Positions 5,213 to 50,184 of a DNA stretch of 64,000 nucleotides are shown here, piece by piece; positions within the stretch are counted from its first letter, which is position 1; every line of letters starts with the position of its first letter. Origin of the DNA: Mustelus asterias (lineage: Eukaryota). The notes under the pieces were generated by a model. That model saw nothing but the letters and a program-made list of their open reading frames with translations, was not told the origin of the DNA and made no database searches. The position numbers and the translations under genes were made by a program. Location of the stretch: positions 806,001 to 870,000 of the forward strand of contig NW_027590172.1 of the NCBI RefSeq assembly GCF_964213995.1, given 5' to 3'.

Positions 5213-7318
5213 TCACTCGTGAACTTGCTGGTGCCTCAGCAGCCGGGATGAAACGCTGAAACCCTTCCCACACACAGAGCAGGTGAACGGCCTCTCCCCA
5301 GTGTGAACTCGCTCGTGCGTCTGCAGGTTGGATAACTGAGTGAATTCTTGCCCGCACTGAGAGCAGGTGAACGGCCTCTCCCCAGTGTGAACTCGCTGGT
5401 GTGTTTGCAGGTTGGAAAGCTGAGTGAATCCCTTCCCACACTGAGAGCAGGTGAACGGCCTCTCCCCTGTGTGAACTCGCTGGTGTGCCCGCAGGCTGGA
5501 TGACTGAGTGAATCCCTGCCCACACTGAGAGCAGGTGAATGGTTTCTCCCCTGTGTGAACCCGCTGGTGTGTCCGCAGGTCGGATGACCGAGTGAATCCC
5601 TTCCCACACTGAGAGCAGGTGAATGGTCTCTCCCCAGTGTGAACTCGCTGGTGTGTCTGCAGGCTGGATAACCGAGTGAATCCCTTCCCACACTGAGGGC
5701 AGGTGAACGGTCTCTCTCCAGTGTGAACCCGCTGGTGTGTCCGCAGATGGGTTGACCGAGTGAATCCCTTCCCACACTGAGAGCAGGTGAACGGCCTTTC
5801 CCCAGTGTGAACTCGCTGGTGTGTCTGCAGGCTGGATAACTGAGTGAATCCCTTCCCACACTGAGAGCAGGTGAACGGCCTCTCTCCAGTGTGAACTCGC
5901 TGGTGTCTCTGCAGGCTGGATAACTGAATGAATCCCTTCGCACACTGAGAGCAGGTGAATGGTCTCTCTCCGGTGTGAACTCGCTGATGTGTCTGCAAGT
6001 GGGATGACAGAGTGAATCCCTTCTCACATTGAGAGCAGGTGAACGGTCTCTCCCCAGTGTGAACTCGCTGATGTCTCTGCAGGTGGTATGACCGAGTGAA
6101 TCCCTTCGCACACTGAGAGCAGGTGAATGGGGGCTTCTCCCCAGTGTGAACTCGCTGGTGTGCCCGCAGGTCGGATGACCGAGTGAATCCCTTCCCACAC
6201 TGAGAGCAGGTGAACGGCCTCTCCCCAGTGTGAACTCGCTGGTGTGCCTGCAGGTTGGATAACTGATTGAATCCCTTCCCACACTGAGAGCAGGTGAACG
6301 GCCTCTCCCCAGTGTGAATTCGCTGGTGTGTCAGCAGGCTGGATGACCGAGTGAATCCCTCCCCACACTGAGAGCAAGTGAATGGCCTCTCCCCTGTATG
6401 AACTCGCTGGTGTGTCCGCAGCTCGGATAACTGAATGAATCCCTTCCCACACTGAGAGCAGGTGAATGGCCTCTCCCCAGTGTGAACTCGCTGGTGTCTC
6501 TGCAGGCTGGATAACTGAGTGAACCTCTTACCACACTGAGAGCAGGTAAATGGCCTCTCTCCAGTGTGAACTCGCTGGTGTCTCTGCAGGCGGGATGACT
6601 GAGTGAATCCATCCCCACACTGAGAGCAGGTGAACGGCCTCTCCCCAGTGTGAACTCGCTGGTGTATCTGCAGGCTGGATAAATGAGTGAATTCCTTCTC
6701 ACACTGAGAGCAAGTGAACGGCCTCTCTCCAGTGTGAACTCGCTGGTGTCTCTGCAGGTGGGATGACTGAGTGAATCCCTCCCCACATTGAGAACAGGTG
6801 AACGGCCTCTCTCCAGTGTGAACTCGCTGGTGTGACTGCAGGCGGGATGACCGAGTGAATCCCTCCCCACACTGAGAGCAGGTGAATGGCCTCTCCCCAG
6901 TGTGAACTCGCTGGTGTGTCTGCAGGCTGGATAAATAAGTGAATTCCTTCTCACACTGAGAGCAAGTGAACGGCCTCTCTCCAGTGTGAACTCGCTGGTG
7001 TCTCTGCAGGCTGGATATCCGAGTGAATCCCTTCCCACACTGAGAGCAGGTGAAGGGCCTCTCCCCAGTGTGAACTCGCTGGTGTCTCTGCAGGTGGGAT
7101 GACTGAGTGAATCCCTCCCCACATTGAGAGCAGGTGAACGGCCTCTCCCCAGTGTGAACTCGCTGGTGTCTCTGCAGGTTGGATAACTGACTGAATCCCT
7201 TCCCACATTGAGAGCAGATGAACGGCCTCTCCCCAGTGTGGCTGCGCCGATGAGCTTCCAGCTCTGATGGGGTTCCGTATCCCTTCCCACAGTCCGCACA
7301 TTTCCATGGTTTCGCCAT
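5213..7318 (-). CDS. C2H2 zinc-finger protein, 25 tandem fingers, no KRAB/SCAN/SET domain (ZNF-1)
   Basis: 701-aa ORF MAKPWKC...; 25 CxxC-x12-HxxxH units with TGERPF linkers; ATG in accATGg context; splice acceptor upstream at 7670/7671; conserved family 3' UTR follows. Confidence 0.93.
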
Positions 7319-7511
7319 GGTGCAGGTGTCCTTACCTCACTCTTGAGTGGACAATTAGTTGAAACTTCGTCCACACACAGAACAAGATTACAGTCTCCAC
7401 CTGCTGTGAATGGTGTGATATTTATTCAGACTGTGTAACTGGTGAAAGCTCTTTAGTCAGTGCATTGGAACACACTCACTCGAGTGTGGCAGTGTGTTGA
7501 CGCTTTTTCAC

Positions 7512-7559
7512 TCACACTGACATTTCAAATCTTTTCAAATCGACAGACTGGACAATCAT
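7512..7559 (-). promoter_or_regulatory. 15-codon uORF (MIVQSVDLKRFEMSV*) in ZNF-1 leader, derived from a decayed finger
   Basis: gaaATG...gtgTGA; same start, length and stop as uORFs at 30467-30514 and 39924-39971. Confidence 0.55.
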
Positions 7560-8104
7560 TTCTCCTTCTGGATTCAAAGTCCGATGATATTGAGGTCCCA
7601 AGGAATATGACTCTGTCAGATCTAGACGTGACGTTTGAGATTTCAGCCTGTGATTCCTCTTTCAATATCCTGGAAAATGAGTTTCCAAAAGTCATCAGTG
7701 TCAGTACAGGATAGAAATTCAGAACAGACAATTTCTATGGAACATTCTTTCCTCTCTCATTCAGAGGGTGGGTTCTCCCCCGCATATGCACAGCTTCCCC
7801 TCTCCCTCGCACATTTTGCAGTCCCGGGCGGGGGGAGGGGGAGATCACCGAGCGGCTTCTCGCTCTGGCCAGAGCCGTCAGCCGGTTGCCTGGAAACCTT
7901 GGCTCGATGTGGTGTAGGGGGAGGGGAACAATGGGTGGGGGCGGGGCTCCCGGGTCCGCACGCCCGGGCCTGCACCATGGAACCCGGAGACATCACCGCG
8001 GAGCGCAGTGATTTCTATTGGCTGATTCAGGCAGGGTTCTATCGTAGCGTCACAATGCGGAAGTTGTCCAATGAGCTTCAGAGTGAAATTTCGCTCTCCG
8101 ATCA

Positions 8105-8206
8105 CATTCCATTGTGACGTCACACACTCACCCATTCCATTGTGATGTCACACCCTCACCCATTCCATTGTGACCTCACACTCTCACCCATTCCATTGTG
8201 ACGTCA
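8105..8206. repeat. 28-bp tandem repeat x3.6 carrying CRE/ATF motifs
   Basis: Unit cattccattgtga(c/t)(g/c)tcacac(a/c/t)ctcacc; perfect TGACGTCA in units 1 and 4. Confidence 0.85.
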
Positions 8207-8494
8207 GGGCTTCACTCTCCGATCACAATCCCTGCCGGCCTCCCACATGCAGCCTCAATGGCGGCAGTCAGCCCGGGTCTAACACTACAAGCTGCCGCTC
8301 CATTTGGTACAAAGGGGGGGACCGGGAAGTTCATTTCCGGGGTCTGGGTTTGAACAACATGTTTACAAAGTCTCTCCACCCACTCGCCACATTTATCATT
8401 CCCCGCACGCCGCCCCCTACCTAGTATTGATCTCGCCTCCAAATTAAAACCGCCCGTCTACCCGTCGCCATTACCCGCACTGCGCATGCTTCAG

Positions 8495-8625
8495 GTCCCG
8501 CCCCTCATTCACTCTGATTGATTGGAGGACCAGCCGCTCCCGCTCGGTCCTCCAGTCCCGCCCCTCGTTCACTCCGATTGGTTGGAGGACCAGCCGCTCC
8601 CGCTCGGTCGGCCAGTCCCGCCCCC
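8495..8625. repeat. 60-bp tandem repeat x2.2 (GC box + CCAAT + inverted repeat)
   Basis: gtcccgcccctc.ttcactc.gattg.ttggaggaccagccgctcccgctcggtc..cca repeated at 60-nt spacing. Confidence 0.85.
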
Positions 8626-9112
8626 TCTTCCTATTGGTCCGGAGCTGCCGTCAATCAGTCCCCGGGCATTGTGATGTGGAGCATGCGCAGTGTCATTGCT
8701 GTCCTTGGCGCTTGTTTGTCCCGGAGAAGCGGAGTCAGCGTTAGGCGGTGGCTGGGAGGATTTGGAAACACTTTGTGGATCCGCAAACCCTTCAGAATCA
8801 TTGTCAGCTCCCTGGTTTGCAGCTGCGGGGCTTCTCCCTCCCTCCCTCCCGGGAACAGGCCCAGGTTAACGGCCCCATCCTGGCTCAGCCACTGGAGGAT
8901 GGTTCACATCAGAGGATGGGGGAGGGGGACAATAAATAAGAGGTTACACTTTGGCCTCAAATCAATGAGGACTCTGATCTCTGGGAAGGAAGGAAACCCT
9001 GGGAGGTGGGCGGGGAGGATTCACAAACACCCGCTGGAGGCCCCAACACCCCCAATAAGAGCCATTGGTTTTATTGTCAGTCTGCAGACAGGAGCTGAAG
9101 AACTGAACCCAG

Positions 9113-9396: not shown

Positions 9397-10005
9397 AAGA
9401 ACTGAACCCAGACAGAGGAGAGGGAGGGGGAAAACTGGGAGTGGAGGGAAGAAATGGTGGAGATGTTGAGATGGGTTTGGATTTCAGTCCAGGGGAGGAG
9501 GTAGAGTGTGTGGGACGGGGATTTATAGATTTGGGGGAACAAGAGAGGAAAATATGTTCCAGAGAAACTATGAATTGTCTGTTCAGAATTTCTATCCTGC
9601 ACTGACAGTGATGGTATTTGTAAACTGTTTTTGCAGGGTATTATGAAGCAGGATTTACAGATGTGAAACTCAAACCAAACTTCACATCAAGATCTGTTTC
9701 AGTGATTTGATTCATCAGAAACTGAATATCATCAGCCTTTGTCTACAGAAGGAGAAATGTTCATTCTGTCTGCGGGCAAAGATTTCAAACATCAGTGTGA
9801 CTGAAAAAGCACCTAGACACACAAACACACCTGAGAGTTTCCAATGTGCTGAATGTGGAAAGTGGTTTAACAAGTCTGAAAAATAATCACATCATTCTAA
9901 CTGAGTAGTGACCCGACACACATTCTGTGTAAACGAGGCTTCAACTCATCATCCAACCTGGAGTCACATGAGGACACCCGCACCACAGAGAAACCACTGA
10001 AATGT

Positions 10006-11211
10006 GTGGACTGTGGGAGGGGATTCAATTACCCGTCCGAATTGGATATTCATCATCGCATTCACACTGGAGAGAGGCCGTTCACCTGCTCTGAGTGTGG
10101 GAAAGGATTTGCTTACTCATCCAGCCTCTATACACACCGGCGTGTTCACACTGGTGAGAGGCCATTCACCTGCCTCGAATGTGGGAGGAGATGTCATGCT
10201 TTATCAAGCCTCCTGATTCACCGGCAGGTTCACTCCGATCAGAGACTGTTTCAGTGTTCTGATTGTGAGAAAAGCTTTAAAAGCACAAAGGACCTCCTGA
10301 GACACCAGCGCACTCACATGGCGGTGAGACCGTTCACCTGCTCAGTGTGTGGGAAGGGATTCACTCAGTCATCCCACCTTCTGACACACCAACTTGTTCA
10401 CACTGATCAGAGACCATTTCAATGTTCTGACTGTGAGAAGAGATTTAAAAGTAAAAATGATTTACAAGTCCATCAGCGCACTCACACTGGGGAGAAGCCA
10501 TTCACCTGCTCCGTGTGTGAGAGGAGATTCGGACGTTTATCCCAGCTGCAAACACACCAGCAAGTTCACTCTGATAAGAGACCGTTTCAGTGTTCTGACT
10601 GTGAGAAGAGCTTTAAAAGTAAACAGGATTTGGTGACACACCAGCGAGTTCACACTGGGGAGAAACCGTTCACCTGCTCGGTGTGTGGGATGGGATTCAC
10701 CCATTCATCCCGCCGTCTGAGACACCAGCGAGTTCACACCGGGAAGAAGACATTTATTTGCTCTGTGTGTGGGAAGGGATTCACTGATTCGCCCCACCTT
10801 CTGATACACGAGCGAATTCACACTGGGGAGAAACCCTTCGCTTGCTCCACATGTGGGAAACGATTCACTCAGCCACCCCAGCTCATTGCACATCAACTGG
10901 TCCACACTGATCAGAGACCTTTTAAGTGTTCTGACTGTGAGAAAAGTTTTAAAAGCACGAAGGACCTGCTGAGACACCAGCAAATTCACACTGGGGAGAG
11001 ATCATTCACCTGCTCCATGTGTGGGAAAAGGTTCACTCAGTCATCCCACCTGCTGAGACACCAGCAGGTTCACACAGGAGAGAGATCGTTCACCTGCTCC
11101 GTATGTGGGAAGAGATTTGCTCGGTCAGCCAATCTGCTGAGACACCAGCAAGTTCACAAGTCACTGCAGGGATTGGATTCTGCTGTTGCTGCTAACCCCA
11201 TGCAGGACTGA
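10006..11211 (+). CDS. C2H2 zinc-finger protein, 14 fingers (ZNF-2); family ATG replaced by ACA, start uncertain
   Basis: Frame open from 9901 to 11211 without ATG until 10318; 14 fingers; family stop TGA changed to TCA (11161) extending C-terminus SLQGLDSAVAANPMQD. Confidence 0.78.
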   Translation: MDCGRGFNYPSELDIHHRIHTGERPFTCSECGKGFAYSSSLYTHRRVHTGERPFTCLECGRRCHALSSLLIHRQVHSDQRLFQCSDCEKSFKSTKDLLRHQRTHMAVRPFTCSVCGKGFTQSSHLLTHQLVHTDQRPFQCSDCEKRFKSKNDLQVHQRTHTGEKPFTCSVCERRFGRLSQLQTHQQVHSDKRPFQCSDCEKSFKSKQDLVTHQRVHTGEKPFTCSVCGMGFTHSSRRLRHQRVHTGKKTFICSVCGKGFTDSPHLLIHERIHTGEKPFACSTCGKRFTQPPQLIAHQLVHTDQRPFKCSDCEKSFKSTKDLLRHQQIHTGERSFTCSMCGKRFTQSSHLLRHQQVHTGERSFTCSVCGKRFARSANLLRHQQVHKSLQGLDSAVAANPMQD

Positions 11212-16778: not shown

Positions 16779-17993
16779 TCAGCAGGTGGGATGACTGAGT
16801 GAATCCCTTTGTGAATCCTTGTGAACTCGCTGGTGTGTCTGCAGGTGGGATGACTGAATGAATCCCTTTCCACACTCAGAGCAGATAAACGGCCTCTCTC
16901 CAGTGTGAACTTGCTGGTGACTCTGCAGATAAGACGAAAGAGCGAATCCTTTCCCACACTCAGAGCAGGTGAATGGTCTCTCCCTGGTGTGAACACGTCG
17001 GTGTGCCTGCAGGTGAGCTGAACGAGTGAATCCCTTCCCACACTCAGAGCAGGTGAACGGCCTCTCCCCGGTGTGAACTTGCTGGTGATTCTGCAGGTCG
17101 GATAACTGAATGAATCCCCTGCCACACTCGGAACAGGTGAATGGCCTCTCCCTGGTGTGAACCTCCTGATGTGACACTAGGTGGGATGATTGAATAAAAC
17201 GCCTCCCACACTCGGAGCAGACGAATGGCCTCTCCCTGCTGTGAACCCCCTGGTGTGACATTAGGTGTGACGATTGGATAAAACGTTTCCCACATTCGGG
17301 GCAGCTGAATGGCCTCTCCCTTGTGTGTGTTCCTTTGTGTGTCACTAGGTGTGATAACTGAATAAAATGCTTCCCACACTCGGAGCAGGGGAACGGCCTC
17401 TCCCTCCTGTGGACTCCCTGGTGAGTCACTAGGTGTGATAATTGAATAAAACACTTCCCACACTCAGAGCAGTTGAAAAGCCTCTCCTTAGTGTGGGCTC
17501 GCTGGTGTATCTGCAGGTGAGATGACTGAGTGAAACCCTTTCCACAGTCGGAGCAGGTGAATGGTCGCTCTCCGGTGTGGATTTGTTGGTGATTCAAAAG
17601 TTCAGATGAATGATTGAATTGCTTCCCACACTCAGAGCAGTTGAACGGTTTCTCCCCAGTGTGAATTTGCTGGTGTGTCAGCAGGTGGGATAACTGAGTG
17701 AATCCCTTCCCACACTCAGAGCAGGTGTATGGCCTCTCCCTACTGTGAACTGCTTGGTGATTCCACAGGTCGGCTGCCTGGAGAAAACCCTTCCCACACT
17801 CGGAGCAGATGAAGGGCCTCTCCCCAGTGTGGCTGCATTGATGAATCTTCAGGGCAGATGGGGAGCAGTCTCCTTCCCCACACTTGGAGCAGGGGAACAG
17901 TCTCTCCCCAGTGCGAATATGTTGATGAGTTTGCAGTGCAGACGGGATACGGAATTCCTTACCACAATCCTCATCTTTCCCCGGTTTCTCCAT
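16779..17993 (-). CDS. C2H2 zinc-finger protein, 13 intact fingers + 1 degenerate (ZNF-3); last finger frameshifted
   Basis: MEKPGK... ATG at 17993 in accATGg; junction near 16812 shifts frame; conserved 3' UTR at 16590-16760. Confidence 0.82.
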
Positions 17994-19439
17994 GGTGTGG
18001 ATGTCCTTGTGTCTTTCCAGGTTTAACAATCAGTTAAATCCTCATCCACACAGAGAGCATGTGTACTGTCTGTCCCCGCTGTAAATGATGTGATATTTTT
18101 GCAGTCTGTGTCACTGGTCTTTTGAGAGTCAGTGTACTGGACACTCTCACTCAGGTCTGTGTTCCTTGGTGCCTTTCCAGTCACACTGATGTGACAGAAA
18201 AAACAGATAAATATTTCTTCTTCTCGATTCAAAGTCTGACGATATTCAGGTTCTGATAATTTGAGTGACTCTATTAAGCCTTAACATGTTTTGAGATTGC
18301 TGGCAGCAAATCTTCCCCTTATAACTTCCTGTAAAATGAGTTTACAAAAGTCATCACTGTCAGTATCAAACAGAAATTCAGAATAGACAATTCTAGTTTC
18401 TGTGGAACATTTCTTCCTTTCTCGTTCCTCTGGATCTGTACATCTCCATCCCACACCCTATCCCTGTATCCTCACTCTGCTGTATGTATAATACACCCTT
18501 CCAATTCTCCTGAAGGTGTTGATTCATGCTGATCAACAAATCCATGCTCAGTCCTTCTTCTCCAGCACTGAGATATCTTCATGCAGGCTGCTAGTCTAAA
18601 TACCTAAATATACTTAGCGAAGTAAAATGTATGTAACATAGGGGACCAGTTTAATAATTAGAAGTACAGCAAGGCTATGAGATAGAACATTTCAACAGTG
18701 AACGTTCTTGAATATCAATTTTTTGGCTATGAGGGTGGTGCATTTTGATACATTCAATATTTCAAAATGAAATTAGATGGGCAGTCAAAATAGACTGGCA
18801 GGGGAACAGGGATACAGACGGGATGAGGAGCATATCAGCCATGATTGAATGGCGGAGTGGACTCGATGGGCCAAATAGCCTAATTATGCTCCTATATCTT
18901 ATGAACTTAAGGGGGAATGGGACTGACTGGATTGCTCTACAGAGAGTTAGCATGGACTTGAGTTGCTGAATCGACTCTTTGTGTGATACAATAACCCGAT
19001 TACTGAAAATAAACTACTTAGTTACAGTATTAACAAAACTAAAAATAATAAAAAATGAACTTTATTACTGGACCATGCATAATATATCTAATTTGTACCA
19101 TATTACAAGACTGCACACATCTCTGTCCTATATTAATTTACTGCCCCTTAAATTTCAGCTATTTCCTCGGGAAATCATCCCTTTAAATTGTGAACATTAG
19201 GAAAGAGACCATCCTCTTAACCAGACAAATAAATGTGACAAGTTGAGGAAGCAAAGGATGTCAATGTCTTTAAGAGGGAGAGAGATACCTGGGCCAACCT
19301 TTCCAGAGTCTGCAGCTCCCTGAATTCACTTCCTTTCCCTTCAGTTGCTGCAAGTCCCCAATTTAACCCCAGAATGAGAAAAAAAAGGAGAGAAGAAAAC
19401 AAAGTGTTTTACTGACAGATGTTGACGACAGGAGGAGGT

Positions 19440-19860
19440 TTCAGTCCGTCTCAAATGCAATCTGCATTGTCACAAAGCCCGCACTCTGATTGGCTGGAGG
19501 ACCAGTGTCCTTCCGGTCCTCCAATTCCTCCCATTGGTCAATACCCCTCATGAAGACAGTGGTGCAGCGGAAGTGAGTGGGAGACACTTTGACCCCGGGT
19601 CGCTCTCAGTTGTTGGCCAATGGGAAACGCACATGCGCAGCACTTCTCTGGGTTAATCATGCGCAGTCCCACCCGGCGAATAGAGCGATTTCTCCAGCGC
19701 GGGGGATTGTGGGAGCTGCGGCCGCCATTACTCAGCCGGAGCCCAGTCTCCAAACACCTGGGACTGCGATGGATGGGATGGGGAGGAAGCGAAGTGACCC
19801 CATCCGGATATAATGTACATCTGGGTAGTCACTGGAATTGATAGCGACGCCGCCTTAGCA
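19440..19860. promoter_or_regulatory. CpG-rich promoter between ZNF-3 (-) and a + strand ZNF relic
   Basis: ATTGG/CCAAT boxes, ggaggacc..ggtcctcc element, ETS cggaag, catgcgca x2, YY1-like gccgccatt. Confidence 0.72.
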
Positions 19861-20039
19861 AAATTCAGGTGTAAAAATTTAGACACCTGGGTGACATATT
19901 GGGGAGTGGAATCGCTCAATGTGAAACTGAACCCCAGAGTCAGCAGCGTCCTTGGGGGAGAACTGGGGAAAAATAAGGAGGATGGTCAAAAGAATTAGGC
20001 TTACAATTGATAGGGAGGAGGCAGGTGTTTAAAGTTTGA

Positions 20040-20490: not shown

Positions 20491-20529
20491 AAAGGTAGGA
20501 GAATGTTATGTGACAACCAGAATATCAGT

Positions 20530-20760
20530 TTCAAATTTCTATCCTGTGCTTGCATTCATTGCTTTGATAGATGTTTTTATTTACAAGGGATTAGAATGGA
20601 AGGATTTTCAGTCAGAAATATCTTGGTTCATTTGGACACAACTATCATCAGCGATCAAATGTCAGAGGAACACTGATGCCCTGTTCAAAAAGATTTCAAT
20701 CATCAGTGCGAATGGAAAAGTTGTGTAATGCACATTCCCAAGAGAGAGAGATTTCCAGGG
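20530..20760 (+). pseudogene. ZNF relic (acceptor module + decayed leader), truncated by CR1
   Basis: aatttctatcctgtg module, acceptor ~20588, aagatttcaatcatcagtgcgaatggaaaag leader homology. Confidence 0.5.
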
Positions 20761-20764
20761 AAAG

Positions 20765-21460
20765 AGACATAAGAACATATGAACAAATGAACTGGGAGTA
20801 GGCTACTCAGTCCCTCCAACCTGCTCCATAATTCAATGAGATCATGGCTGATCTGATTTTAGCCTCAACCCCACAGTCCTGGCTACTCCTAATAACTTTT
20901 CAGTCCCTCATTAATCAAGAATCTATTTGACTGTGCTTTTAACTTATTCAAAGACAATGCTTCCACTGTCTTTTGAGGAAGAGTTCCAGAGACTCACAGC
21001 CCTCTTTGAGAAAACATTAGTAATCTTGGTCATAGATGAGCAAACTCTTATTTGTAAACATATGCTCCACCCCTGCCAGTTCTAGATTCTCCATTAAAAG
21101 AAAACATTCCCTCCACATCCACCCTGTCAAGACCCTCAGGTTTTGATCTAATCACCTCTTACTCTTCTAAACTCTAGTGGATACAAGCTGACCCTGTCCA
21201 ACATTTCCTCATCAGACAACCTGTCTATTCCTGGTATTAGTCTAGAAAACCTTCTCAAAACTGCTTCCAATATATTTACATCTTTCCTTAAGTAGGGAGA
21301 CCAATACTGTGCACAACACTCCAGATGTGGTCTCACCAATTGTGTGTACAACTGGAGCATAACCTCCTTACTTTTGTAATCATTTCCCCTCACTATGAAC
21401 AATAACATTCTATTAGCTTTCCTAATTACTTGCTGTTCCTGTATATTGGCCTTTTGGGAT
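20765..21460 (-). mobile_element. CR1 LINE 3' part
   Basis: KSKEVMLQLYTQLVRPHLECCAQYWSPYLRKD. Confidence 0.8.
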
Positions 21461-23377: not shown

Positions 23378-24400
<1,023 letters not shown>

Positions 24401-25592
24401 TCAGTTCCAATAATTTGGGCAACTTTGTCAGATCCCGATATGATGTTTGGTTTCCGGTTTCCCTGTTGCAAAACCACCCCTTCTAAGACCCTGTCACTGT
24501 CAAGTGAATTTAAAACAGAAAAAAAAGTGAGAGAATCCACAAAACACAAAGGCAGGTTGTGAAATTGAGCTGAATAAATATGGCAATTTTTGGGGCTGGC
24601 ACGAGGAAAAAGTGAGCATGGAAACTGCTGGATTGTTAATAACCCAACTGGTTCATTAATAACCTTCAGGGAAGGGAAGCTGACCCCCATCTGAGCCGAG
24701 ACAAGATTATGACCTCTATGAGGGGAGAAGAGGGAGAGAGGATTGGAAGCAGAAGAAGAGAAAGAGAGTGATTTTCTATTTGTACAAATCAACCAGGATT
24801 TTAACAGAATCTCGCAAACCCTCAACCATCATGTCCGAGAAGGAGCAGTTACCAAGTGTATGTGAACACTATCACCTCCGGGTTCTCCTCCAAGGCGCAC
24901 ACAGTTCTGACAGTAAGTAATGGATGAGCAGAAATTTCCTCTACTTCAATATTGGGAAGACTGATGCTACTGTCTTCAGCCCCAGCTACAAACTCCACTC
25001 TTGAGCCACTGACTCCATCCCTCTCCCTGATAACTGTTTGAGTCTGAAGCAGATTGTTCAAACCATTGTGTGATATCTGACCCCAAGACAAGCTCCCAAA
25101 CACATTTTTGCATCATCTTCAAGACTGAATTCCACCTCAGTAACATTTCCTGACTCCACCCCAGACTCAGCTCATCTGCTGCTGAAACACTGACCCATTC
25201 CTTTGTTACCTCTGAGATATCTACACTCCTCTAATTCTGACTTCCTGAGTATTCCTGATTTTATTTACTCCATGTTGTGTGGCCTCGTCTGAAGCTGCCA
25301 AGACCACAAATTCTGGAATTTCCTCCCTAACCCTCACTCTCTTACATTCCTTCATTAAAACACTCCTTAAAACTGACCTCTGCTTCCGGTAGCCCGTGAG
25401 TTTACAAAAGCAATCACCATCAGTCCCAGATAAAAATTCAAACGAGACAATTCTTTTCTCTTGGTATGAGTTTTCTCTGTTAAATCTTCCTCATCTCGCC
25501 CCCTGTAAAAGGAATTTCCAAAATCCAACTCTGTCAGTCCAGGATAGAAATTCGCAACATTCTCTCCTCCTGCTGCCTGGTCCAGGATGTCC

Positions 25593-28129: not shown

Positions 28130-28300
28130 AGATATCAGACGAACCAACTGTGCACCAGCACTCACACACTAAGGAGAGATCATTCACCTGTACCATGTAT
28201 GGGAATGGATTCACTCTGTCATCCACTCAGCTGAGACACCAGCGAGTTCACAAGAAACTACAATGATTGAATTCTGCTGTTAATCACATCCAGGAGCGCA
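28130..28300 (+). pseudogene. Isolated ZNF 3' end relic
   Basis: ERSFTCTMYGNGFTLSSTQLRHQRVHK followed by family 3' UTR ttctgctgttaatcacatccagg. Confidence 0.65.
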
Positions 28301-28319
28301 CAATGCTTATTGGGATTGT

Positions 28320-29249: not shown

Positions 29250-29620
29250 ATATAAATACTGATTTTGTAATGCGCTTCTCCATTGGGAATTCGAACCGAA
29301 TACGAATGTTTAAACTGTCCATCATCAACCTGAGTCATCAATGCCGGCGGGTTTACCCAGCGTCCCCCGCGCTGTAGAATGTCCTCTATCAGTGAGTGCA
29401 GGTGCGCAGGCGCAGTGTGCACTCTGACCATGCTCAGTGTCAGTCATGGTACCAGGGAAGGTTCGGGAGGAGACAGCGAGCACAGGGTCGGAATGGAAAC
29501 CGCGGCACCAACTTCTGGCCCAGGCCGCAGGCCCCGGCTTTACTGCGGGGACAGGCCCAGGGGGGGGGGGGAGCGCTGGAGCCGGCGGCTGGACACTGGG
29601 GAGGATTTGGAAACACTTTG
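29250..29620. promoter_or_regulatory. CpG-rich promoter of ZNF-5
   Basis: NRF1-like tgcgcaggcgca (29403), GC-rich, followed by exon/intron cassette nearly identical to 8752-9110. Confidence 0.7.
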
Positions 29621-30127
29621 TGGATCCGCAAACCCTTCAGAATCATTGTCAGCTCCCTGGTTTGCAGCTGCGGGGTTTCTCCCTCCCTCCCTCCCGGGAA
29701 CAGGCCCAGGTTAACGGCCCCATCCTGGCTCAGCCACTGGAGGATGGTTCACATCAGAGGATGGGGGAGGGGGACAATAAATAAGAGGTTACACTTTGGC
29801 CTCAAATCAATGAGGACTCGGATCTCTGGGAAGGAAGGAAACCCTGGGAGGTGGGCGGGGAGGATTCACAAACACCCGCTGGAGGCCCCAACACCTCCAA
29901 TAAGACCCATTGGTTTTACTGTCAGTCAGCAGACAGGAGCTGGAGAACTGAACCCAGACAGAGGAGAGGGAGGGAGAAAACTGGGAGTGGAGGAAAGAAA
30001 TGGTGAGATGGGTTTGGATTTCAGCCCAGGGAGGAGGGAGAATGTGTGGGACGGGGATTTACAGATTTGGGGGAATGAGAGAGGAAAAAAAGTTCCAGAG
30101 AAACTAGAATTGTCTGTTCAGAATTTC

Positions 30128-30327: not shown

Positions 30328-30711
30328 GAATTTCTATCTCGATTGACTGTGACGATTTTTGTTAACTCCTTTTACAGGTGAGGTGAGGAAACATCACATA
30401 AAAATCAGACTGAGTATCGATTTATTAGGACCTGAATATCCTGAGACTTTGAATGTGGAAGGAGAAATGTTTGTCTGTTCTGCCTGGAGGAGAAGATTTC
30501 AAACATCAGTGTGACTGGAAAAGCACTGAGACACACACACACCCGAGTGAGAGTGTTCCAGTGAACTGACTGTGGAAAAAGCTTAAACCAGTTACACAGC
30601 CTGAAAAAACATCACACCATTCACAGCTGGGAGAAACTGTACATATGTTCTGTGTGTGGACAAGACTTCAACTGATCATCCAACCTGGAGAGACACAAGG
30701 ACACTGGCACT

Positions 30712-31236
30712 ATGGAGAAACCTTGGAAATGTGGGAAGGGATTCAATTATCCTTCCCATCTCGAAACTCATCGTCGCAGTCACACAGGAGAGAGACCGTT
30801 CATCTGCTGTGTGTGTGGAAAAGGTTTTGTTCAGTCACAACACCTGCAGTCACACCAACGCTCTCATTCCAATAAGAGACATTTAAAATGTTCCAACTGT
30901 GAGAAGAGCTTTAAGAGCAAAAAGCACTTGAAACAACACCAACACACACACACTGGAGAGAGGCCATTCATCTGCTCTGTGTGTGGGAAGGGATTCACTC
31001 AGTCAGCCACCCTGATGAGACACCAGCAGACTCACACAGGAAAAAGGCCGTTCACCTGCTCAGTGTGTGGGAAAGGATTCATTCAGTCATCCACTCTGCT
31101 GAGGCATCAGCGAGTTCACACTGGGGAGAGGCCGTTCCCTTGCTCCAAGTGTGGGAAGGAATTCACTCGGTTAGACACTCTCAGTTTGCATCAACATGTT
31201 CACACTGAAAAATTACTTTTTAAACATTACGAATGA
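30712..31236 (+). CDS. C2H2 zinc-finger protein, 5 intact fingers, first finger deleted (ZNF-5; possibly decaying)
   Basis: [11 protein letters not shown]...; premature TGA with further decayed fingers to ~31350. Confidence 0.65.
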   Translation: MEKPWKCGKGFNYPSHLETHRRSHTGERPFICCVCGKGFVQSQHLQSHQRSHSNKRHLKCSNCEKSFKSKKHLKQHQHTHTGERPFICSVCGKGFTQSATLMRHQQTHTGKRPFTCSVCGKGFIQSSTLLRHQRVHTGERPFPCSKCGKEFTRLDTLSLHQHVHTEKLLFKHYE

Positions 31237-35476: not shown

Positions 35477-36464
35477 TCATTTGTGAACTTGCTGGTGTGT
35501 CACAGGGTGTGATGACTGATTGAATCCCTTCCCACACATTGAGCAGGTGAACGGCCTCTCCCCAGTGTGAACTCACTGGTGCCTCAGCAGATGGGATGAC
35601 TGAGTGAATCCCTTCCCACATACGGAGCAGGTGAATGGCCTCCCCTTAGTATGAACTTGTTGGTGCACCAGACTGTCTGATGACTGAATGAATTCATTAG
35701 CACACACTGAGCAGGTGAATGGCCTCTCTCCAATGTGAACTCGCTGGTGCAACAGAAGCTGGTATGACTGAGTGAATCCCTTCCCACACTCAGAGCAGAT
35801 GAATGGTCTGTTCCCAGTGTGAACTCGCTGGTGTGTCACAAGGTGGGATGTCTGAGTGAATCCCTTCCCACACACACAGCAAATAAATGGCCTCTCCTCA
35901 GTGTGAACTCGCTGGTGGGGTTGAGTGAATCCCTTTTCACACACACAGCAAGTGAATGGCCTCACCCCAGTGTGACGTCACTGGTGCATTAGCAAGTCAA
36001 ATGACTGAACAAATCTCTTCCCACACTCAGAGCAGATGAACAGTCTCTTTCCCAGTGTGAAGTCGCTGGTGTATTTGCAGATACTTCTTGCTTTTCAAGC
36101 TCTTCTCGCAGTCAGAACATTTAAAAAGTCTCTGATCACTGTGTACATGTTGATGTTCAGTGAGCTGGCATGACTGAGTGAATCCGTTGCCACACACAGG
36201 CCTGGTGAATGCGCTCTCCTCAGTGTGAACTTGCTCATGAGCCAGGAGGTCATATGAGTCCTTCCCACATGTGGAACATCTGAACGGCCTCTCCTGGGTA
36301 TGAACTGGCTGGCGTGTCAACAGACTGGATAACTGAGTAAATCCATCTCCACACATGGAGAAGGTGAAAGGTCCCTCCCCAGTGTGACTGCATTGATCAT
36401 GTCCCAGTTTAAAAGGGAAAATTAATCCCATCCCACAATCACCATATGTCCACGCTTTCTCCGT
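35477..36464 (-). pseudogene. C2H2 ZNF pseudogene (ZNF-6)
   Basis: Family ATG changed to ACG (36464), internal stops and frameshifts, about 11 finger remnants; leader to 36720, acceptor ~36818. Confidence 0.85.
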
Positions 36465-37109
36465 GATTCAATTATTAATTTGTCTCTCCAGGTTGGATGA
36501 TCAGTTGGAGCCTCACACAGAACACATGTACATTTCTCCGCACTGTGAATGGTATGATGTTTTTTCAGGCTGTGTAACTGGTTAAAGCTCTTTCCACAGT
36601 CAGTTCACTGGAACACTCTCACTCAGGTGAGTGTGTGTCTCAGTGCTTTTTCAGTCACACTGACGTTTAAAATCTTTCCCCACAGATAGAACAAACATTT
36701 CTCCTTCCACATTCAGAAGTCGATGATATTCAGGTCCTGATGAATCAAGTGACTGTCAGATTTTGACATGATGTTTGTTCTGACTTTCCCATCTGGAACT
36801 TCTCTCCCTCGAACTCCCTGCAAAAGGAGTTTACAGAAGTTATCAGTGTAAGTACAGGACAGAAATTCAGAGCTAACAATTCTGTGCCCCACACACGCTT
36901 TTCGCTCTCTGCTCATTGCTCCAGATTGAGTTTCTAGTCTTCTCCTGATTCTTTTCTTCTCTCCAGATTCTCTCCCCTCCTGTCCTCAAACTGGTGACAC
37001 TGGCTGTGGATCAATCCCACTCCGTCACTCTCATTCTAACAAATAATGCAGCTCACAACAATTTAACGAAGGGTCATCTGGACTCAAAACGTTGGCTCTT
37101 TTCTCTCTG

Positions 37110-37897: not shown

Positions 37898-38049
37898 TCT
37901 TTCCACTCTACACAGATACTGTCAGACCTGCTGAGATTTTCAGCATTTTGTGTTTTTGTTTCAGATTCCAGCATCCGCAGTATTTTGCTTTTATCAATTT
38001 CTATTTAATGACTTCATTACTGATTTTAAACATGCGGAAATATTCACCT

Positions 38050-38490
38050 TTTCCCAGTTGGGTCTTTGGTTGAAGTTGCTGCTGGGCTGAAGCCGGAAGC
38101 GGCAGAGTGAGATTCCAGAACAATGAGAGTGGGCGGGGCTGGATGACCGAGCGGGAGCGGCTGGTCCTCCAACCAATCGGAGTGAAGGAGGGGCGGGGTC
38201 GTAGTCTGACTGATGGTGCCCGCTGCGCAGGCGTGGAGTGGACGCTGTGTAGGCGAATGGAGGCGGTGTCGTGGTGTTTGTGAGGAGACATGAGCTCCGG
38301 ACAGGAGAGGAACAGAGCCGGTGAGTGGACTGGGAAGTTTCATAAACACCTTCTGGAGGATTCACAATCCAAATAAGAAGCTATCAGTTCTACGTTGTCA
38401 GTAAGAGACGCTACGACTTTTTTTAATGACAGACCCGGGACACGGCCGCCATCTTGGTGGCAGCAATGCGCATGCGCAGTGACCCTGTCT
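38050..38490. promoter_or_regulatory. Bidirectional CpG promoter between ZNF-6 (-) and ZNF-7 (+)
   Basis: Perfect NRF1 palindrome TGCGCATGCGCA (38467), YY1 GCCGCCATCTTG (38445), ETS ccggaag, GC boxes, CCAAT. Confidence 0.8.
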
Positions 38491-40149
38491 GTAGAAGGTG
38501 AGAATCATGAGTGGATTTTAGGACTGAAGAGAGGTAGAAATGTCACGGCTGTTATATTGTTGGAGAGGGTGGAGCAAAATAGAAGGTCAGTGAAAGTAGA
38601 TCAGGAGAGATTTAACAAATATGTCATGGACACAAGACAACGGAAGTGCTAATGGTAGTGTTAAAGACTAAGGCAGTCTTAATAGTGGCGTAAAGGTCAG
38701 TTTGCAGACTGTGTTCATCAACGAATAAAGGTTAATGTTCTCTCAAAGCAAAACATGCGAAGACGTTAGAGACTGGTGCTTGGGCGGGGAGGTAGTGGAG
38801 GGAAGGAGGAGCTTGAAAAAGTATATATCAAAATGGATTTCCGCTAGGACAAGAGGTATGGCCTTCCTTGGGTAAGGAGACCAAAATTGCACACACTACT
38901 CTAGGTGAGGATTTACCATTGCACTGTAAAATTGTAGTAAGACTTTTTTACTTAATTCCGTATGCACTTAGGAAATATGAGTATGATCAAACAAGTAGCA
39001 TGGTATTACAAAAGAAAAATTGTGCTTGATAAGGTTCTTTGGGTTTTTTGAGGCTGTGACTCATCGGGTAGATGAAGGGCGACCAGTGGGTGTTGTGTAC
39101 TTGGATTTCAAAAAGACATGAGACAAAAGGCATGCTGAAGGTCCACCGTCAATAACTCCAGGAGCCTAGTGCACCAAACTGGGATGGCACTGTGCTCTGA
39201 GCACGCTCAGTGAGGTTGGTGGAGGTGGACTGAGGAGGAACAGGTGGCTCAGATAGTAGGAGGAGATTTTGGTGCAGGGGAGGAATTGGAGCTGTGGGTC
39301 GGCTGGGAAGCTTCAGAAACAGGTGATGTATGGAACTTGCAATAAGAATATCAAATTCCTGAGTTTACAGCGCTGGGGCTTTATGGGGACAGGCCCAGGT
39401 TAACAGTTACCATCCTAGTTTGATGACTGGCAGAGCGCATGCACAACTTTCTTGGTGTGGGAGTAGAGAGTGGGTGGGACTTCATGGTCCCAGTGATCGG
39501 AGAGATAATTATTCACTCATTGATTTTATTCTCATTCTTCACTCAGCAGCTGGAGAATTGAACCCAGGCAGAATAAAGGAAAGGAGAAAACTGGGAGGAG
39601 AAAGGAAATGATGGAGATTGCACTGAAATCCAGTGAATCACATTGGGAGGAGGGACAGTTTGTGGAATGTGATTTACTTTGTGAGTTGTGTCAGCAACTT
39701 GGAGAACAAGAGAGGAAAAAATATTCCAAAGAAACTAGAGTTGTCAGTTTTGGATTTATGCCTGTACTTACAGTGAATCATTTGTGTAATGTCCTTTTAC
39801 AGGGCATTCACACTGGAGAATTTTCAGACAGGAAATCCAAACCAAACATCACATTGAGATCTGACAGAGTCACTCGATTCATCAGGACCTGAATATCTTC
39901 GGCCTTTGAATATGGATGGAGAAATGTTTTTCTGTTCTATCTGTGGGAAAAGATTTCAAACATCAGTGTGACTGGAAAAGCACCGACACAGACACACCCG
40001 AGTGAGAGTGTTCCAGTGAACTGACTGTGGAAAGAGTTTAACCAGTTACACAGCCTGAAAAAAAATCACACCATTCACAGCGAGGAGAAACGATACATGT
40101 GTTCTGTGTGTGGATGAGGCCTCAGCTGATCATCCAACCCCAGGGCACC

Positions 40150-40908
40150 ATGGAGAAACCGTGGAAATGTGGGGACTGTGGGAAGGGGTTTAGTTGTCCA
40201 TCCCACCTAGAAACTCATCGACGCAGTCACACTGGGGAGAGGCCGTTCATCTGCTCCAACTGTGGGAAGGGATTCACTCAGCCATCCAGCCTTGTGTCAC
40301 ACCAACGAATTCACACTGAGGAGAAACCTTTCAAATGCTTTGACTGTGGGAAAAGCTTTAGGAGCTCTGGGTGTTTAATTCAACATCAGGGACTTCACAC
40401 AGGAGAGAGACCGTTCATCTGCTCCATGTGTGGGAAGAGATTTGCGTCTTCATCGCAACATTCAAAACACCTCCGAGTGCACACGGGGGAAAGACCGTTC
40501 ACCTGTTCTGAATGTGGGAAGAGATTCAGGTGTTCATCCAACTTCACTGAACATCTCCGTGTGCACCCAGGAGAGAGACCATTCACATGCTCTGAGTGTG
40601 GGAAGGGATTCACTTGTTCATCCCACCTTGCTGAACACAATCGTGTTCACAGTGGAGAGAAACCATTTGTCTGTTCCACGTGTGGGAAAGGATTCACTAC
40701 GTCATCCCAGCATCTGACACACCAGCAGGTTCACACTGGGGAGAGACCGTTCAGCTGCTCCACGTGTGGGAAGAAATTTAGTCGTTCATCCACCCTGCAG
40801 AGACACCAGCGGGTTCACACTGGGGAGAGACCGTTCTCCTGCTCCGAGTGTGGGAAGGGACTCACTCAGTCATCCCACCTGCTGAGACATCAGCAAATTC
40901 ACAAGTGA
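40150..40908 (+). CDS. C2H2 zinc-finger protein, 9 fingers (ZNF-7)
   Basis: [10 protein letters not shown]... ATG in accATGg; intact to TGA followed by family 3' UTR; uORF 39912/39924-39971 upstream. Confidence 0.88.
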
Positions 40909-44408: not shown

Positions 44409-44443
<35 letters not shown>

Positions 44444-44659
44444 AGAGGGGGTGGATGGTAAATCAATCAGTTCGTTACACCAGCTGACATTCCAAGGAGT
44501 TCATCTTCAGGTGTGGACGTTTGTTCCGCTATTAATTAAACTCAGGACAGAACTGTGGTGCCTGTTGACATTAGCTGCTGTATTAGTTATTTTCATTTTA
44601 TACCTTGGTGCTTTGGCTTCAGTTGTAATTGAATCACAAAACATAATTTTTTTAATGCA

Positions 44660-45060
44660 ATAACATACTTCAATGGTGGCTATCTTACCCAGCATTCACA
44701 GTGAATCAGAATATGATCTATCCTTACAACAGACTTTGCGCATGCGTACTGTAGATCCAAAGTGCATGCGCAATGTATGTTGCTCCCGCAGTAGCAGGAG
44801 GGCGGTTATATCGGCTCCGGGTTACCAGGGAAACGGCTTATTCTGGAGGGTAATGCAGGCGGCGGGGTGGATGGAGAGGCTTCATAAGCACCCAGTGGAG
44901 ACAGGAGAACCCGAATAATAACTGCTCAGTGCCGCGTTCCTACCATTCGGGGCCGCGACCACAGATGCCGAGTTGGAGGCCCCGAGTTGACGGAGCCCAT
45001 CTTTCCCGGGGCGATGGGCAATAGTGCGCATGCGCGCTGCTCCCTGCCAGCAGGAGGAGA
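44660..45060 (+). promoter_or_regulatory. CpG promoter of ZNF-8
   Basis: ZNF143/Staf-like ttacccagcattc, three NRF1-like sites (44737, 44763, 45025); paralogous to 53850-54130. Confidence 0.72.
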
Positions 45061-45454
45061 GAATGTTGTGAATTTCTCTCCTGGACTGACAGGGATGGAC
45101 TTTGGAAACTCCTTTTACAGGGAGTTAGAAGGGGAGGATTTACACACAGAAAACTCAACCCAAGAGAAATGTTTCTCGCTTAATTTCTATTCTTGACTGA
45201 CAGTGATGATCTATTTTTTACAGGAAATTTGATGACAAAATTTGAAGGGAAACTCAAACCAGACATCAGACCAAAACCTGCCAGAGTCACTCCATTCATC
45301 AGAACCTGATTGTAAGTGTGTCTGTAGAAAAAGATTCAAACATCTGTGTGGCTGGAAATACGGAACAATAATGTCATGGAAGGATTTGCAAACAAAGATG
45401 CAATGTTTTAAATTGAGTTGTTTAACCGGGAGCCTGTGTGGGTCAGTGTTTTAA

Positions 45455-46695: not shown

Positions 46696-46699
46696 TGTA

Positions 46700-47940: not shown

Positions 47941-49338
47941 GCATTCATATATAGAAGATGGACAGAGAAAGGAAAGATTTACAGTGCAGAGATCACAGAG
48001 AACAATTGTGTTTCACATGATCCAGAATCAAAATGTCGCTCTGGGAGAATGAGGTGTGAGTTTCTTTGTGTCTCCCAGATTGCTCCATTTGTTCAGGGGT
48101 CAGAAACACACACAGATTCAGCTATTTCTCCCATTTTAATAATTTTAGAAATAGCTATGAGGATATCAATACATGTTTTCAAAGAAGTATGCAGTGTGAG
48201 GTCCCAGCCCCCTCACCGATGGAAACCCATTCTTGGAGATGGAACAGGTGTGTGGTTGGAAGGGCATCGGGGGTGGGGGGTGAGACACCGAGTAATGTTC
48301 TGGGAACCGAGGTTCAAATCCTGCCATGGCAGGTGGTGGAATTTACATTCAATACAAGTTTGAATTTGAAAGGCTAATGATGAGCAAAAAAACCATTATT
48401 GATTATCATAAAAGCCCATTGGGTTCACTAGTGCTGTTTAGGGAAAAACAAATCTGCCATCTTCACCTGGTCCGGCCTACATGTATCTCCAGATCTGCAA
48501 TGTGGTTGAATCTTAATTCCCTCTGATATGGCACAGCAAGCCTCTCAGTTATACCCAACTAGTACAAAGTTACTAAAAAGGTATGGAAATGGGCAGACCA
48601 GGCATAGGCCTTGGCACGGGAAACGGCCTTGTCGACCCTGCAAAGTCAGATTTAGAAAATAAATATTTGAACCTGGTTGTAAACAGCCTGCTTCAGCACC
48701 AGAGTGGGATGGTGTCAGTGTCCACGGGGTGGAGTTTGTAGCACGGACTGAAGACAATTGTTTCATGTTTCTCACTCTGTAAATGGAGGAAACTTCTCCT
48801 AATCCAGGACAGGATCTCAGTCCAGTCGCGATGCTGTGTGACTTTGAGGTGATGATGTTCACATTCACCTGTGAACCTGGTCTTTCTAAATGGTGGAGGT
48901 TGAAGGTTTGGGAGTTTCTATCTGGCTGTAGATGTATCCTTTCCTTCACCTCTTTTCCTCCCACATCTCTTAATCCTGCCCATCCGCTGCCTCTTCACAT
49001 TGAAGCTCTGGTCTTGTATCGGTTCAGACTGGCTCAAAGGTTCCCTTCCCTGAAGGACATTAGTGAACCAGTTGGGTTTTTATGACAATCCATCAGTTTT
49101 CTTGGTCTCTTTTTCCCAGTGCCGGCCCCACAAATTACCAGATTCATTCAGCTCAATTTCACAACCTGCCTTTGTGTTTTTGTGGGTTCTCTCTCACTCT
49201 CTTTTTTCTTTTTTAAATCAATTTCACAGCATATTCAAAGGTGAGGATTTGCAGTCAGAAAACTGAAACCAAACATCACATCAGGATCAGACAGAGTCGC
49301 CCAATTTATCGTAATATGCGTATCATTGGATTTTGAAC

Positions 49339-50184
49339 ATGGAAGGAAAAAGCACCGCTCACAGTGGGGAGAAACTGTACACGTGTTCCGTGTGTGGACG
49401 AGGATTCAGCCGTTTATCTGGCCTGTCAAAACATAAATGCAGTCACGGTGGGGAGAAATTGTGGAAATGTGAGTATTGTGGCAAGGGATTCAGTTCCCCA
49501 TCAGAGCTGGAAATTCATCGACGGAGTCACACTGGGGAGAGACCGTTCACCTGCTCCGAGTGTGGGAAAGGATTCACTCAGTTGTCCCACCTGGTGAGAC
49601 ACCAGCGAGTTCACACTGGGGAGAGACCATTCACCTGCTCCGAGTGCAAGGTGGGATTCACTCAGTCAGCCCACCTGGTGTCACACCAGCGAGTTCATAC
49701 GGGAGAGAGACCATTCACCTGCTCCGAGTGCAAAATGGGATTCACTCAGTCAACCCACCTGGTGACACACCAGCGAGTTCACACTGGGGAGAGACCATTC
49801 ACCTGCTCCGAGTGTGGGAAGAAATTCAGCCGGTCGTTTCACCTTCTGATTCACCAGCGAATTCACTCTGGAGAGAGACCATTCACCTGCTCTGAGTGTG
49901 AGAAGGCATTCATTACATCAACCGAACTGTTGACACACCAGCGGATTCACACTGAGGATAACCCGTTCACCTGCTCCAAATGTGGGAAGGAATTCGCTAA
50001 CTCTTCTAACCTGATCTGCCATCAACGAATTCACACTGACGAGAGACCTTTTAAATGCCCAGACTGTGGAAAGTGCTTTAAAAGTTTTGGGAACTTGATG
50101 ACCCATCAACGGGTTCACACTCGAGTCCGTTCAGATGCTTTCACTGTGGGACTGAGTTCAGACAATCATCTCCTCTCACTGTAA
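49339..50184 (+). CDS. C2H2 zinc-finger protein, 9 fingers (ZNF-8); frameshift near 50121 drops last two fingers
   Basis: [16 protein letters not shown]...; acceptor tttcacag ~49229; AATAAA at ~50381. Confidence 0.8.

Follow-up and report, generated by a model that had tools for sequence, protein, structure and literature searches.

A shark family of finger-only C2H2 genes whose untranslated leader appears to be the decayed front of an ancestral zinc-finger gene

Tetrapod KRAB-ZNF clusters are characterized by clustered arrays, birth-death turnover and head-to-head CpG promoters, and their proteins, with an N-terminal KRAB domain in frame, recruit TRIM28 and repress transposons. Positive selection at KRAB-ZNF contact residues is cited in the portion of PMC10547256 drawn on here, which reports the same selection, together with repression of transposable elements (TEs), for the cyprinid FiNZ-ZNFs, a lineage-specific group of hundreds of genes that is packed among immunity genes (zebrafish 4q) and has a 28-aa acidic domain encoded by a separate upstream exon. 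Retrotransposon binding without an effector has a precedent in ZNF146 (OZF), a single, highly conserved finger-only gene without KRAB whose product binds LINE-1; as LINE-1 was not de-repressed in HEK293 cells that had lost it, effector-less binding need not silence, on the results excerpted from PMC8896011. KRAB families are absent from cartilaginous fishes according to the relevant part of PMC8455134, and tandem-ZNF open reading frames number 3,586 in Scyliorhinus canicula and 1,851 in Carcharodon, among the highest counts on record (PMC10547256, in excerpt).

The window analyzed here, a stretch of 64,000 nucleotides on Mustelus asterias contig NW_027590172.1, resembles tetrapod KRAB-ZNF clusters in its clustered one-exon tandem C2H2 arrays, birth-death turnover, fast change at contact residues and head-to-head CpG promoters; unlike them, it has no KRAB exon, and its genes carry a dead coding-exon front, a start codon derived from a finger link and a family-specific, atypical first finger (the cap finger). 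The family shares lineage specificity, a size of hundreds of genes, contact-residue selection and a position among immunity genes with the FiNZ-ZNFs, from which it differs in that no upstream exon can be in frame through the normal acceptor, and TE repression, demonstrated for that group, would be a prediction for the shark family. Unlike the single-gene ZNF146, it has variable contacts and 2,082 exact genomic matches to its 25-nt start motif (control 0), a genome-wide count proposed earlier that uncollapsed haplotypes may inflate. Cephalopod C2H2 expansions are likewise big, lineage-specific, non-tetrapod and of open transposon link, and the portion of PMC12513265 consulted makes no mention of a fossil leader, link-derived start or cap finger. 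An N-terminal finger for protein contacts is also described for the Drosophila single C2H2 dimerization domains, which are, in the excerpted account, isolated, Diptera-specific fingers with an extra strand (PMC12774644); the shark cap finger lies in register with the array and is predicted to adopt an ordinary finger fold. We regard the family as a variation on the tandem-ZNF arms-race theme.

Between positions 5219 and 50118 of the window, 85 canonical C2H2 fingers fall into 8 arrays (25, 14, 13, 5, 5, 5, 9 and 9), with relics at 20.5, 28.2, 45.2 and 54.0 kb, which bears out an earlier note on this DNA that had listed at least eight genes or pseudogenes and three to four relics. Five of the genes (G1 to G8) are open, one lacks a start codon and two are broken. 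As that note had also stated, an acceptor module lies 5' of the array in all eight, although it proved to be more than a splice element, consisting of about 350 nt of dead coding sequence that once encoded a linker and three fingers (the fossil leader). The cassette is not uniform as had been described, because G4 and G8 form a second subfamily (type B) with a shorter leader and the start MEGKST, and at least three types of first exon occur in the cluster. The proposed CpG promoters were recovered at five intervals (7.7-8.9, 19.4-19.95, 29.25-29.6, 38.0-38.5 and 44.7-45.2 kb), but the commonest promoter/exon-1 module of the family is complete only at G3 and one orphan site, and no canonical donor was found upstream of G1. 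The shared 3' module follows seven of the eight genes at E<=1e-3, G5 being the exception. Scans for tRNA and Rfam families gave no matches. The features are as follows, with first exons placed from donor sequences.

5213..7318, reverse strand: G1 coding exon part, type A; 701 aa, 25 fingers, intact cap finger
7319..7669, reverse strand: G1 fossil leader; 351 nt, dead linker and three fingers, stop at ancestral codon 56
7701..8900, no strand: CpG island in the G1/G2 head-to-head interval; donor end of G2 exon 1 at 8864
9637..9984, forward strand: G2 fossil leader; 348 nt
9985..11211, forward strand: G2 open frame; 14 fingers, ACA at the start codon position
16779..17993, reverse strand: G3 coding part; 404 aa, 13 fingers, degenerate cap finger
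17994..18328, reverse strand: G3 fossil leader; 335 nt
19318..19950, reverse strand: G3 promoter/exon-1 module, commonest family type; donor after 19417
20501..20800, forward strand: decayed leader relic
23381..24500, reverse strand: G4, type B pseudogene; frameshifts, stops and a repeat insertion, 5 canonical fingers remaining
28153..28310, forward strand: relic of a last finger and 3' module
29251..29957, forward strand: CpG island and G5 exon 1, head-to-head with G4; donor after 29709
30378..31236, forward strand: G5; leader 30378-30711, coding 30712-31236, 174 aa, 5 fingers, 3 residues deleted from the cap finger
35480..36817, reverse strand: G6 pseudogene; leader 36465-36817 and a broken array
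38001..38500, no strand: CpG island in the G6/G7 head-to-head interval; candidate donors, from sequence, after 38048 (reverse) and 38320 (forward)
39803..40908, forward strand: G7; leader 39803-40149, coding 40150-40908, 252 aa, 9 fingers, intact cap finger
44701..45450, forward strand: CpG island followed by leader relics; possibly the G8 promoter and 5' exons
49230..50184, forward strand: G8, type B; 109-nt dead linker, coding 49339-50184, 281 aa, 9 fingers, cap finger in second place
53801..54170, forward strand: orphan promoter/exon-1 module; donor after 54152, neither leader nor array found 3' of it within the window
60432..64000, reverse strand: constant-region exons of the immunoglobulin heavy chain (C1-set), duplicated together with the ZNF block

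The origin of the leader is indicated by one intact gene on another contig (C1), with which the family consensus of the leader is colinear codon by codon and whose 384-aa open frame contains the entire leader in frame. Among the 150 best genomic matches to the first 67 aa of this gene, 148 contain stops, and the second of the two that lack them is truncated to a fragment. In the family the leader is open in 0 of 85 copies, whereas 63 of 85 keep the first 121 coding codons open, and the leader shows no codon-position pattern of change. Its net frames are split 24/31/31, and 354 of 455 indels are not multiples of three. Stops are found at codon 56 in 77 of 86 copies and at codon 109 in 66 of 79, and in 416 of 424 by exact pattern matching. 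The type A start is an ATG in strong context within a former TGEKP link, and type B has lost two fingers by deletion and starts at a different ATG. Read from its open frame, with a family tree that carries no outgroup, the C1 gene would represent the ancestral state, and the bare finger arrays would then exist because the front of that ancestral gene decayed into an untranslated leader. Loss of the N-terminus, with its fossil leader, had not been noticed in the earlier note.

What remains of these proteins appears to be fingers only, as 4-6 residues precede the first finger in type A from the predicted start, and 59 of 90 open frames end one residue past the last finger, as G1 does. The arrays are single-exon tandems of Kruppel-type fingers joined by TGE(K/R)P links, and the 90 open frames have a median of 9 fingers. 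In the inner fingers, positions -1, 3 and 6 give pN/pS of 1.29-1.98, the lower bound exceeding 1 in all 16 settings, and F and L4 give 0.09 and 0.23, these values being pairwise counts on single fingers without a codon model. Base-contact residues thus change faster than silent sites, which is diversifying selection of the kind known from KRAB- and FiNZ-ZNFs; the earlier note's cartilaginous-fish family in birth-death evolution is borne out.

That note had also put forward the first finger as a possible effector. The cap finger is intact in G1, in G7 and, as the second finger, in G8; G2 has an altered version, and in G3, G4, G5 and G6 the finger is broken or degenerate. Its W, or P+1 together with E+5, occurs in 0 of 849 inner fingers. 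The Cys/His residues, plus the cap W and K, were fixed by the finger search pattern, and almost no replacements were seen at P+1, E+5 and R+9. Non-contact positions of the cap finger have a pN/pS of 0.36 as opposed to 0.85 in inner fingers, a strong constraint that is consistent with a docking surface. However, its positions -1, 3 and 6 vary as in DNA-reading fingers, so it is not a pure effector; its pN/pS interval spans 1 in four of eight settings. AlphaFold models the cap finger and finger 2 as an ordinary two-finger fold (pLDDT 85).

We favor, at a probability of roughly 0.55, the reading that this is a shark family of finger-only C2H2 genes in which an untranslated leader has replaced the lost front, and that the predicted proteins likely recognize DNA that changes fast, probably that of transposons, and would act through the cap finger or by occupancy and not through a KRAB-type domain. 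The front of an ancestral zinc-finger gene would have decayed into a dead linker and three dead fingers, translation would begin at new ATGs, derived from the link in type A and placed elsewhere in type B, and the cap finger may dock a cofactor unless the proteins act by occupancy. A bolder version, offered tentatively, would add to KRAB and FiNZ a third system of transposon surveillance in vertebrates, in which sharks and rays field thousands of domain-less arrays, all from one gene decapitated before the living shark lineages split, with a cap finger that reads DNA and recruits a silencing cofactor on its opposite face. The family offers a concrete architecture, an intact relative showing its origin and one short conserved finger, which makes the need for an effector domain in ZNF-TE arms races directly testable.

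An effector might nevertheless be hidden in a minor leader-skipping isoform with a short N-terminal peptide, in a C-terminal exon or in an effector-bearing partner. This we consider quite improbable, although 31 of 85 leaders have, 3' of their last stop, an AG with a pyrimidine-rich stretch, a possible internal acceptor, and a candidate coding exon of 13 codons in the C1 gene is phase-compatible with its leader. In the common exon 1, an ATG lies 17 codons 5' of the donor; among the 11 copies that carry it, its frame is open in 5, stopped in 4 and shifted in 2. A search of 282 sense-strand flanking ORFs of at least 40 aa, up- and downstream, against all of Pfam, returned RVT_1 twice and one sub-threshold Swm2 and no effector family, SCAN, BTB and zf-AD included, in keeping with the earlier note, which had found no effector exon. 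KRAB had no match in 175 upstream ORFs of at least 40 aa, nor in 76 genome-wide candidates, a search whose control was also negative; SCAN gave 146 genomic matches with 150 of 604 candidates scored, none on contigs C140 or C71. As the leader is closed in 85 of 85 copies, an exon joined at the normal acceptor cannot bring an in-frame effector, and a FiNZ-type upstream exon was judged indirectly from this block and from the unconserved exon-1 frames. The best-supported exon-1 junction also leads to the normal acceptor: in one contig of run X1, from another species and presumed to be RNA without a DNA control, the end of exon 1 is spliced straight onto the leader start (the G2/G5-type junction; the G5 CpG/exon-1 region is 98% identical to that of G2). 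This is the sole RNA support. The four presumed-RNA runs were compared as contigs, whose depth cannot rank gene parts and was left aside, and a possible second junction, 8865 to 9784, appeared in this comparison. Far less probable is that the leader is itself the selected unit, through read-through, a uORF or an RNA stem, with longer proteins carrying three front fingers still being made. Leader codons 56-92 do evolve slowly (0.64-0.76 of the mean rate, intron 1.15), and the rate falls to 0.56, against 0.76 around it (permutation p 0.0007), in a predicted 15-bp stem containing the first stop (mean folding z -1.07), but covariation is absent from this stem (30 transitions keep a pair and 27 break one, with 1 double change), its 5' arm lies within the motif used for picking copies, and the intact C1 gene has the same stem; RNAalifold on 79 leader rows gave no structure, and the stem was not accepted as a proven one. 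Additional stops and random frames in the leader led us to reject selenocysteine insertion or read-through at the conserved TGA, and the missing codon-position pattern to reject protein-level selection on the leader. A uORF of 11-15 codons is common, yet its ATG is kept in 61 of 81 copies, no better than its neighbours, and neither exon 1 nor the uORF gives support for a conserved micro-peptide.

The cluster could also have spread as a passenger, with ZNF and IgM blocks multiplied by segmental duplication, few copies that matter and no role in TE control that the genes share. Whole blocks are duplicated over many contigs together with their IgM exons, a co-duplication that had been overlooked: contig C158 repeats 47.5 kb of the window region, with the IgM exons, at 98.8% identity, 40 of 40 scored copies of the G1 leader match at 97-100%, and ZNF matches also occur on 18 of the 26 contigs that give top matches to IgM exons. 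Decay is also common, as three of the eight window genes are broken or startless, and among type B copies, whose motif has 262 exact genomic matches, only 15 of 29 have at least 5 fingers in frame. We still regard this account as unlikely, given the open finger frames beside closed leaders, the contact residues that outpace silent sites, the constrained cap finger, and ZNF clusters on the long contigs C12 and C23, which are absent from the 40 scored IgM matches. Targets other than transposons, such as satellites, selfish meiotic elements, the surrounding immune-gene clusters or RNA, are a somewhat fainter prospect. Selection on contact residues does not reveal what is bound, the genes alternate with IgM clusters, and zinc-finger genes are reported to surround shark MHC-Ia-like genes (PMC10751288, in excerpt); against this, ZNF number follows retroelement number across metazoans in the cited part of PMC10547256, and cartilaginous fishes, KRAB-less according to the excerpt of PMC8455134, have a vacant TE-control role.

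Finally, homologues were sought beyond Mustelus asterias. With the C1 N-terminus as query, no clear full-length orthologue was found among proteins of the length range covered: one search gave 34 matches, mostly generic ZNFs with one Scyliorhinus leader model, another gave none, and a third gave 12, of which 8 were leader-like and 4 were unrelated repeats. An atlas search returned generic ZNF clusters only, and the open-access literature, excluding three supplementary files of PMC10547256, held no description of the gene structure. Predicted proteins from other shark orders, in Pristiophorus and Carcharodon, terminate at the leader's two stops, and proteins with the cap finger were found in Mustelus, Scyliorhinus, Heterodontus, Chiloscyllium, Cetorhinus and Pristis.

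A six-frame scan of the window found eight arrays (G1 to G8) with 85 canonical C2H2 fingers, in agreement with the earlier note's claim of at least eight genes or pseudogenes. Five arrays (G1, G3, G5, G7 and G8) have a frame open from an ATG. The frame of G2 is open with ACA where the start codon would be, and the remaining two, G4 and G6, are broken. Head-to-head pairs (G1/G2, G4/G5 and G6/G7) flank CpG islands, and the intergenic DNA is chiefly decayed LINE and SINE sequence. The stereotyped cassette that had been proposed held for the splice acceptor and the leader between it and the start codon (8/8 genes) and for the 3′ module (7/8), but not for exon 1, which is of several types among family genes. 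Of the 55 family copies examined, 42 have the commonest promoter/exon-1 module upstream in the sense orientation; in the window it is complete at only two sites, G3 and an orphan site.

In G1 (window 7670-7900, minus strand), the promoter module adjoins the 3′ end of the intron and the usual exon-1 donor is absent, a subtype nevertheless present in many near-identical copies. The exon-1 donor is the endpoint of repeat insertions in several family copies (upstream regions of genomic pieces L015, L062, L074 and L089). At the end of G8, a 60-bp inverted duplication (window 50129-50188 and 50860-50919) adjoins a deletion that puts the last fingers out of frame. A tandem repeat of about 67 bp (window 31816-32334 and 33536-33759) flanks on both sides a young LINE fragment with 98.6% identity to a fragment at window 62-935.

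The leader, about 350 nt after the acceptor, translates as a dead linker followed by three dead fingers. One leader motif carries a TGA at the same codon in 416 of 424 exact-flank copies, a pattern biased toward conserved copies. One exception is a relative on the 202-Mb contig C1, with a 384-aa frame open across the whole leader, a CpG promoter, and 13 in-phase codons that may form its first exon:

L021 550-1704 (minus strand) plus L092 about 1700-1900, C1 near 169.14 Mb: intact, apparently single gene

Some 40 kb upstream of it are exons resembling those of ATP synthase. The 86 non-redundant leader copies, drawn from 112 passing a motif filter, are colinear with the C1 gene codon by codon, and in its numbering stops fall at codon 56 (77/86), codon 109 (66/79) and codon 52 (33/84). 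None of the 86 leaders is open; 354 of 455 indels break the frame, and the net frames divide 24/31/31. Alignment to the C1 gene places the family ATG at the Gly position of the TGEKP link preceding finger 4. In the 85 copies whose sequence extends far enough downstream, no leader is open and the first 121 coding codons are open in 63, with the acceptor AG kept in 75/85 and the ATG in 72/85. Judged by its open frame, the C1 gene probably represents the ancestral state; the tree of leaders has no outgroup. Type B genes (G4 and G8 in the window) have no fossil fingers 1 and 2, retain finger 3 and start earlier, so types A (the other six) and B are likely products of two separate truncations. Of 29 type B copies, 4 have an open linker. 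A leader fragment without an array (L026, contig C21 near 54.47 Mb) adjoins a CpG island whose neighborhood carries, on the opposite strand, the first exon of an apparently unrelated gene.

Leader and intron have diverged similarly among copies (pairwise identity 0.72), which argues that the leader survives mostly through slow decay. Codons 56-92 evolve slower than the intron and contain a predicted 15-bp stem (alignment positions 163-178 and 233-249; window ~39966-40055 in G7) that includes the first stop and evolves slower than flanking sequence, its 5′ arm overlapping the motif used to filter copies. We found no covariation in this stem among leader copies. The new start codon lies inside a predicted 6-bp hairpin (window 40148-40164 and equivalent sites) with a mean pair probability of about 0.8 across copies. 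One contig of run X1, a run from another organism and tentatively taken to be RNA, joins a G2/G5-type exon-1 end to the leader start. Possible internal acceptors occur in 31 of 85 leaders and may be used for splicing.

No effector domain was detected in 282 sense-strand ORFs around the arrays (175 upstream of at least 40 aa; 107 downstream of at least 45 aa) or in six read-through frames of window 50.3-60.4 kb, in line with the earlier note, in which no KRAB, SCAN, BTB, ZAD or FiNZ-like exon was found. RVT_1 matches in the ORF scan show that it works. At least 146 dispersed SCAN-like matches (L190-L199), many interrupted by stops, are presumably retrotransposon capsid remnants.

The 90 open frames have a median of 9 fingers; in 59 of them the stop comes one residue past the last finger. 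At contact positions -1, 3 and 6 of inner fingers, pN/pS, a pairwise count rather than a codon model, was 1.29-1.98 in close pairs. The lower bootstrap bound exceeded 1 in all 16 settings, among them those restricted to inter-gene pairs or stripped of CpG sites; the ratio was 0.09 at F and 0.23 at L4. Contact positions of the cap finger, the family's KPWKC-type first finger, gave 1.29-1.60, with an interval containing 1 in 4 of 8 settings, and its non-contact positions gave 0.36 compared with 0.85 in inner fingers. Three cap-finger residues (P+1, E+5 and R+9) are nearly invariant. Since none of the 849 inner fingers carries W or the pair P+1 and E+5, and these residues are absent from the C1 gene, the cap finger is a hallmark of the expanded family. 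Its predicted structure is that of an ordinary finger.

In Pristiophorus japonicus and Carcharodon carcharias, predicted proteins terminate precisely at the stops of codons 56 and 109. Leader-like or cap-finger proteins were found in Scyliorhinus, Mustelus, Heterodontus, Chiloscyllium, Cetorhinus and Pristis. Together with the two species above, these genera span both shark superorders and one ray. The species of the protein relatives and the immunoglobulin C1-set exons in the window indicate that the DNA is from a shark. The linker is in frame in two Heterodontus models (P0039 and P0042), so it was not lost in every lineage.

High shark ZNF counts are already known from the supplement of PMC10547256, whose main text lacks the strings "shark", "cartilaginous" and "chondrichthy"; in our literature search, the gene structure of this shark finger-only family was not described. 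PMC10751288 mentions ZNF genes around shark MHC-like genes. The finger-only cluster is a real feature of the sequence, with a putative function. It has a dead leader, a start codon derived from a finger link, open and diversifying arrays and a constrained cap finger, and the proteins would presumably be made and bind DNA. Transposons may drive array diversification, a proposal based on likeness to FiNZ-ZNFs (PMC10547256) and on the absence of KRAB families from cartilaginous fishes (PMC8455134 and PMC11603059). The cap finger might dock a cofactor, or the array might block by occupancy. According to PMC8896011, the finger-only protein ZNF146 binds LINE-1 yet is dispensable for its silencing in HEK293 cells.

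The genome-wide count of start-motif genes proposed earlier gave, across 3.68 Gb, 2,082 exact occurrences of a 25-nt motif (reversed control, 0), with 262 of the type B motif and 11,664 first-look candidates from a protein query, counts that uncollapsed haplotypes may inflate. The motif counts are nonetheless of the same order as the 3,586 tandem-ZNF ORFs that the PMC10547256 supplement gives for Scyliorhinus canicula. Window leaders are only 67-87% similar to one another, and five of the six that are type A have their nearest sampled relative in the tree, whose sample was partly seeded with window sequences, on another contig. A 47.5-kb segment including IgM exons is repeated on contig C158 at 98.8% identity, and six G1 copies differ from G1 mainly by gain or loss of whole fingers (23-26 fingers). 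The block therefore combines old subfamilies in a mosaic that segmental duplication has multiplied in the regions of the IgM clusters; ZNF matches also occur on 18 of the 26 contigs bearing the best IgM exon matches. The IgM-type cluster (window 60432-64000, minus strand) has constant exons (C1-set, 60.4-64 kb), and a V exon with recombination signals lies about 12 kb past the window end (C140, about 881700-882500, the window being C140 806001-870000). One IgM constant exon used as query returned 110 first-look candidates genome-wide.
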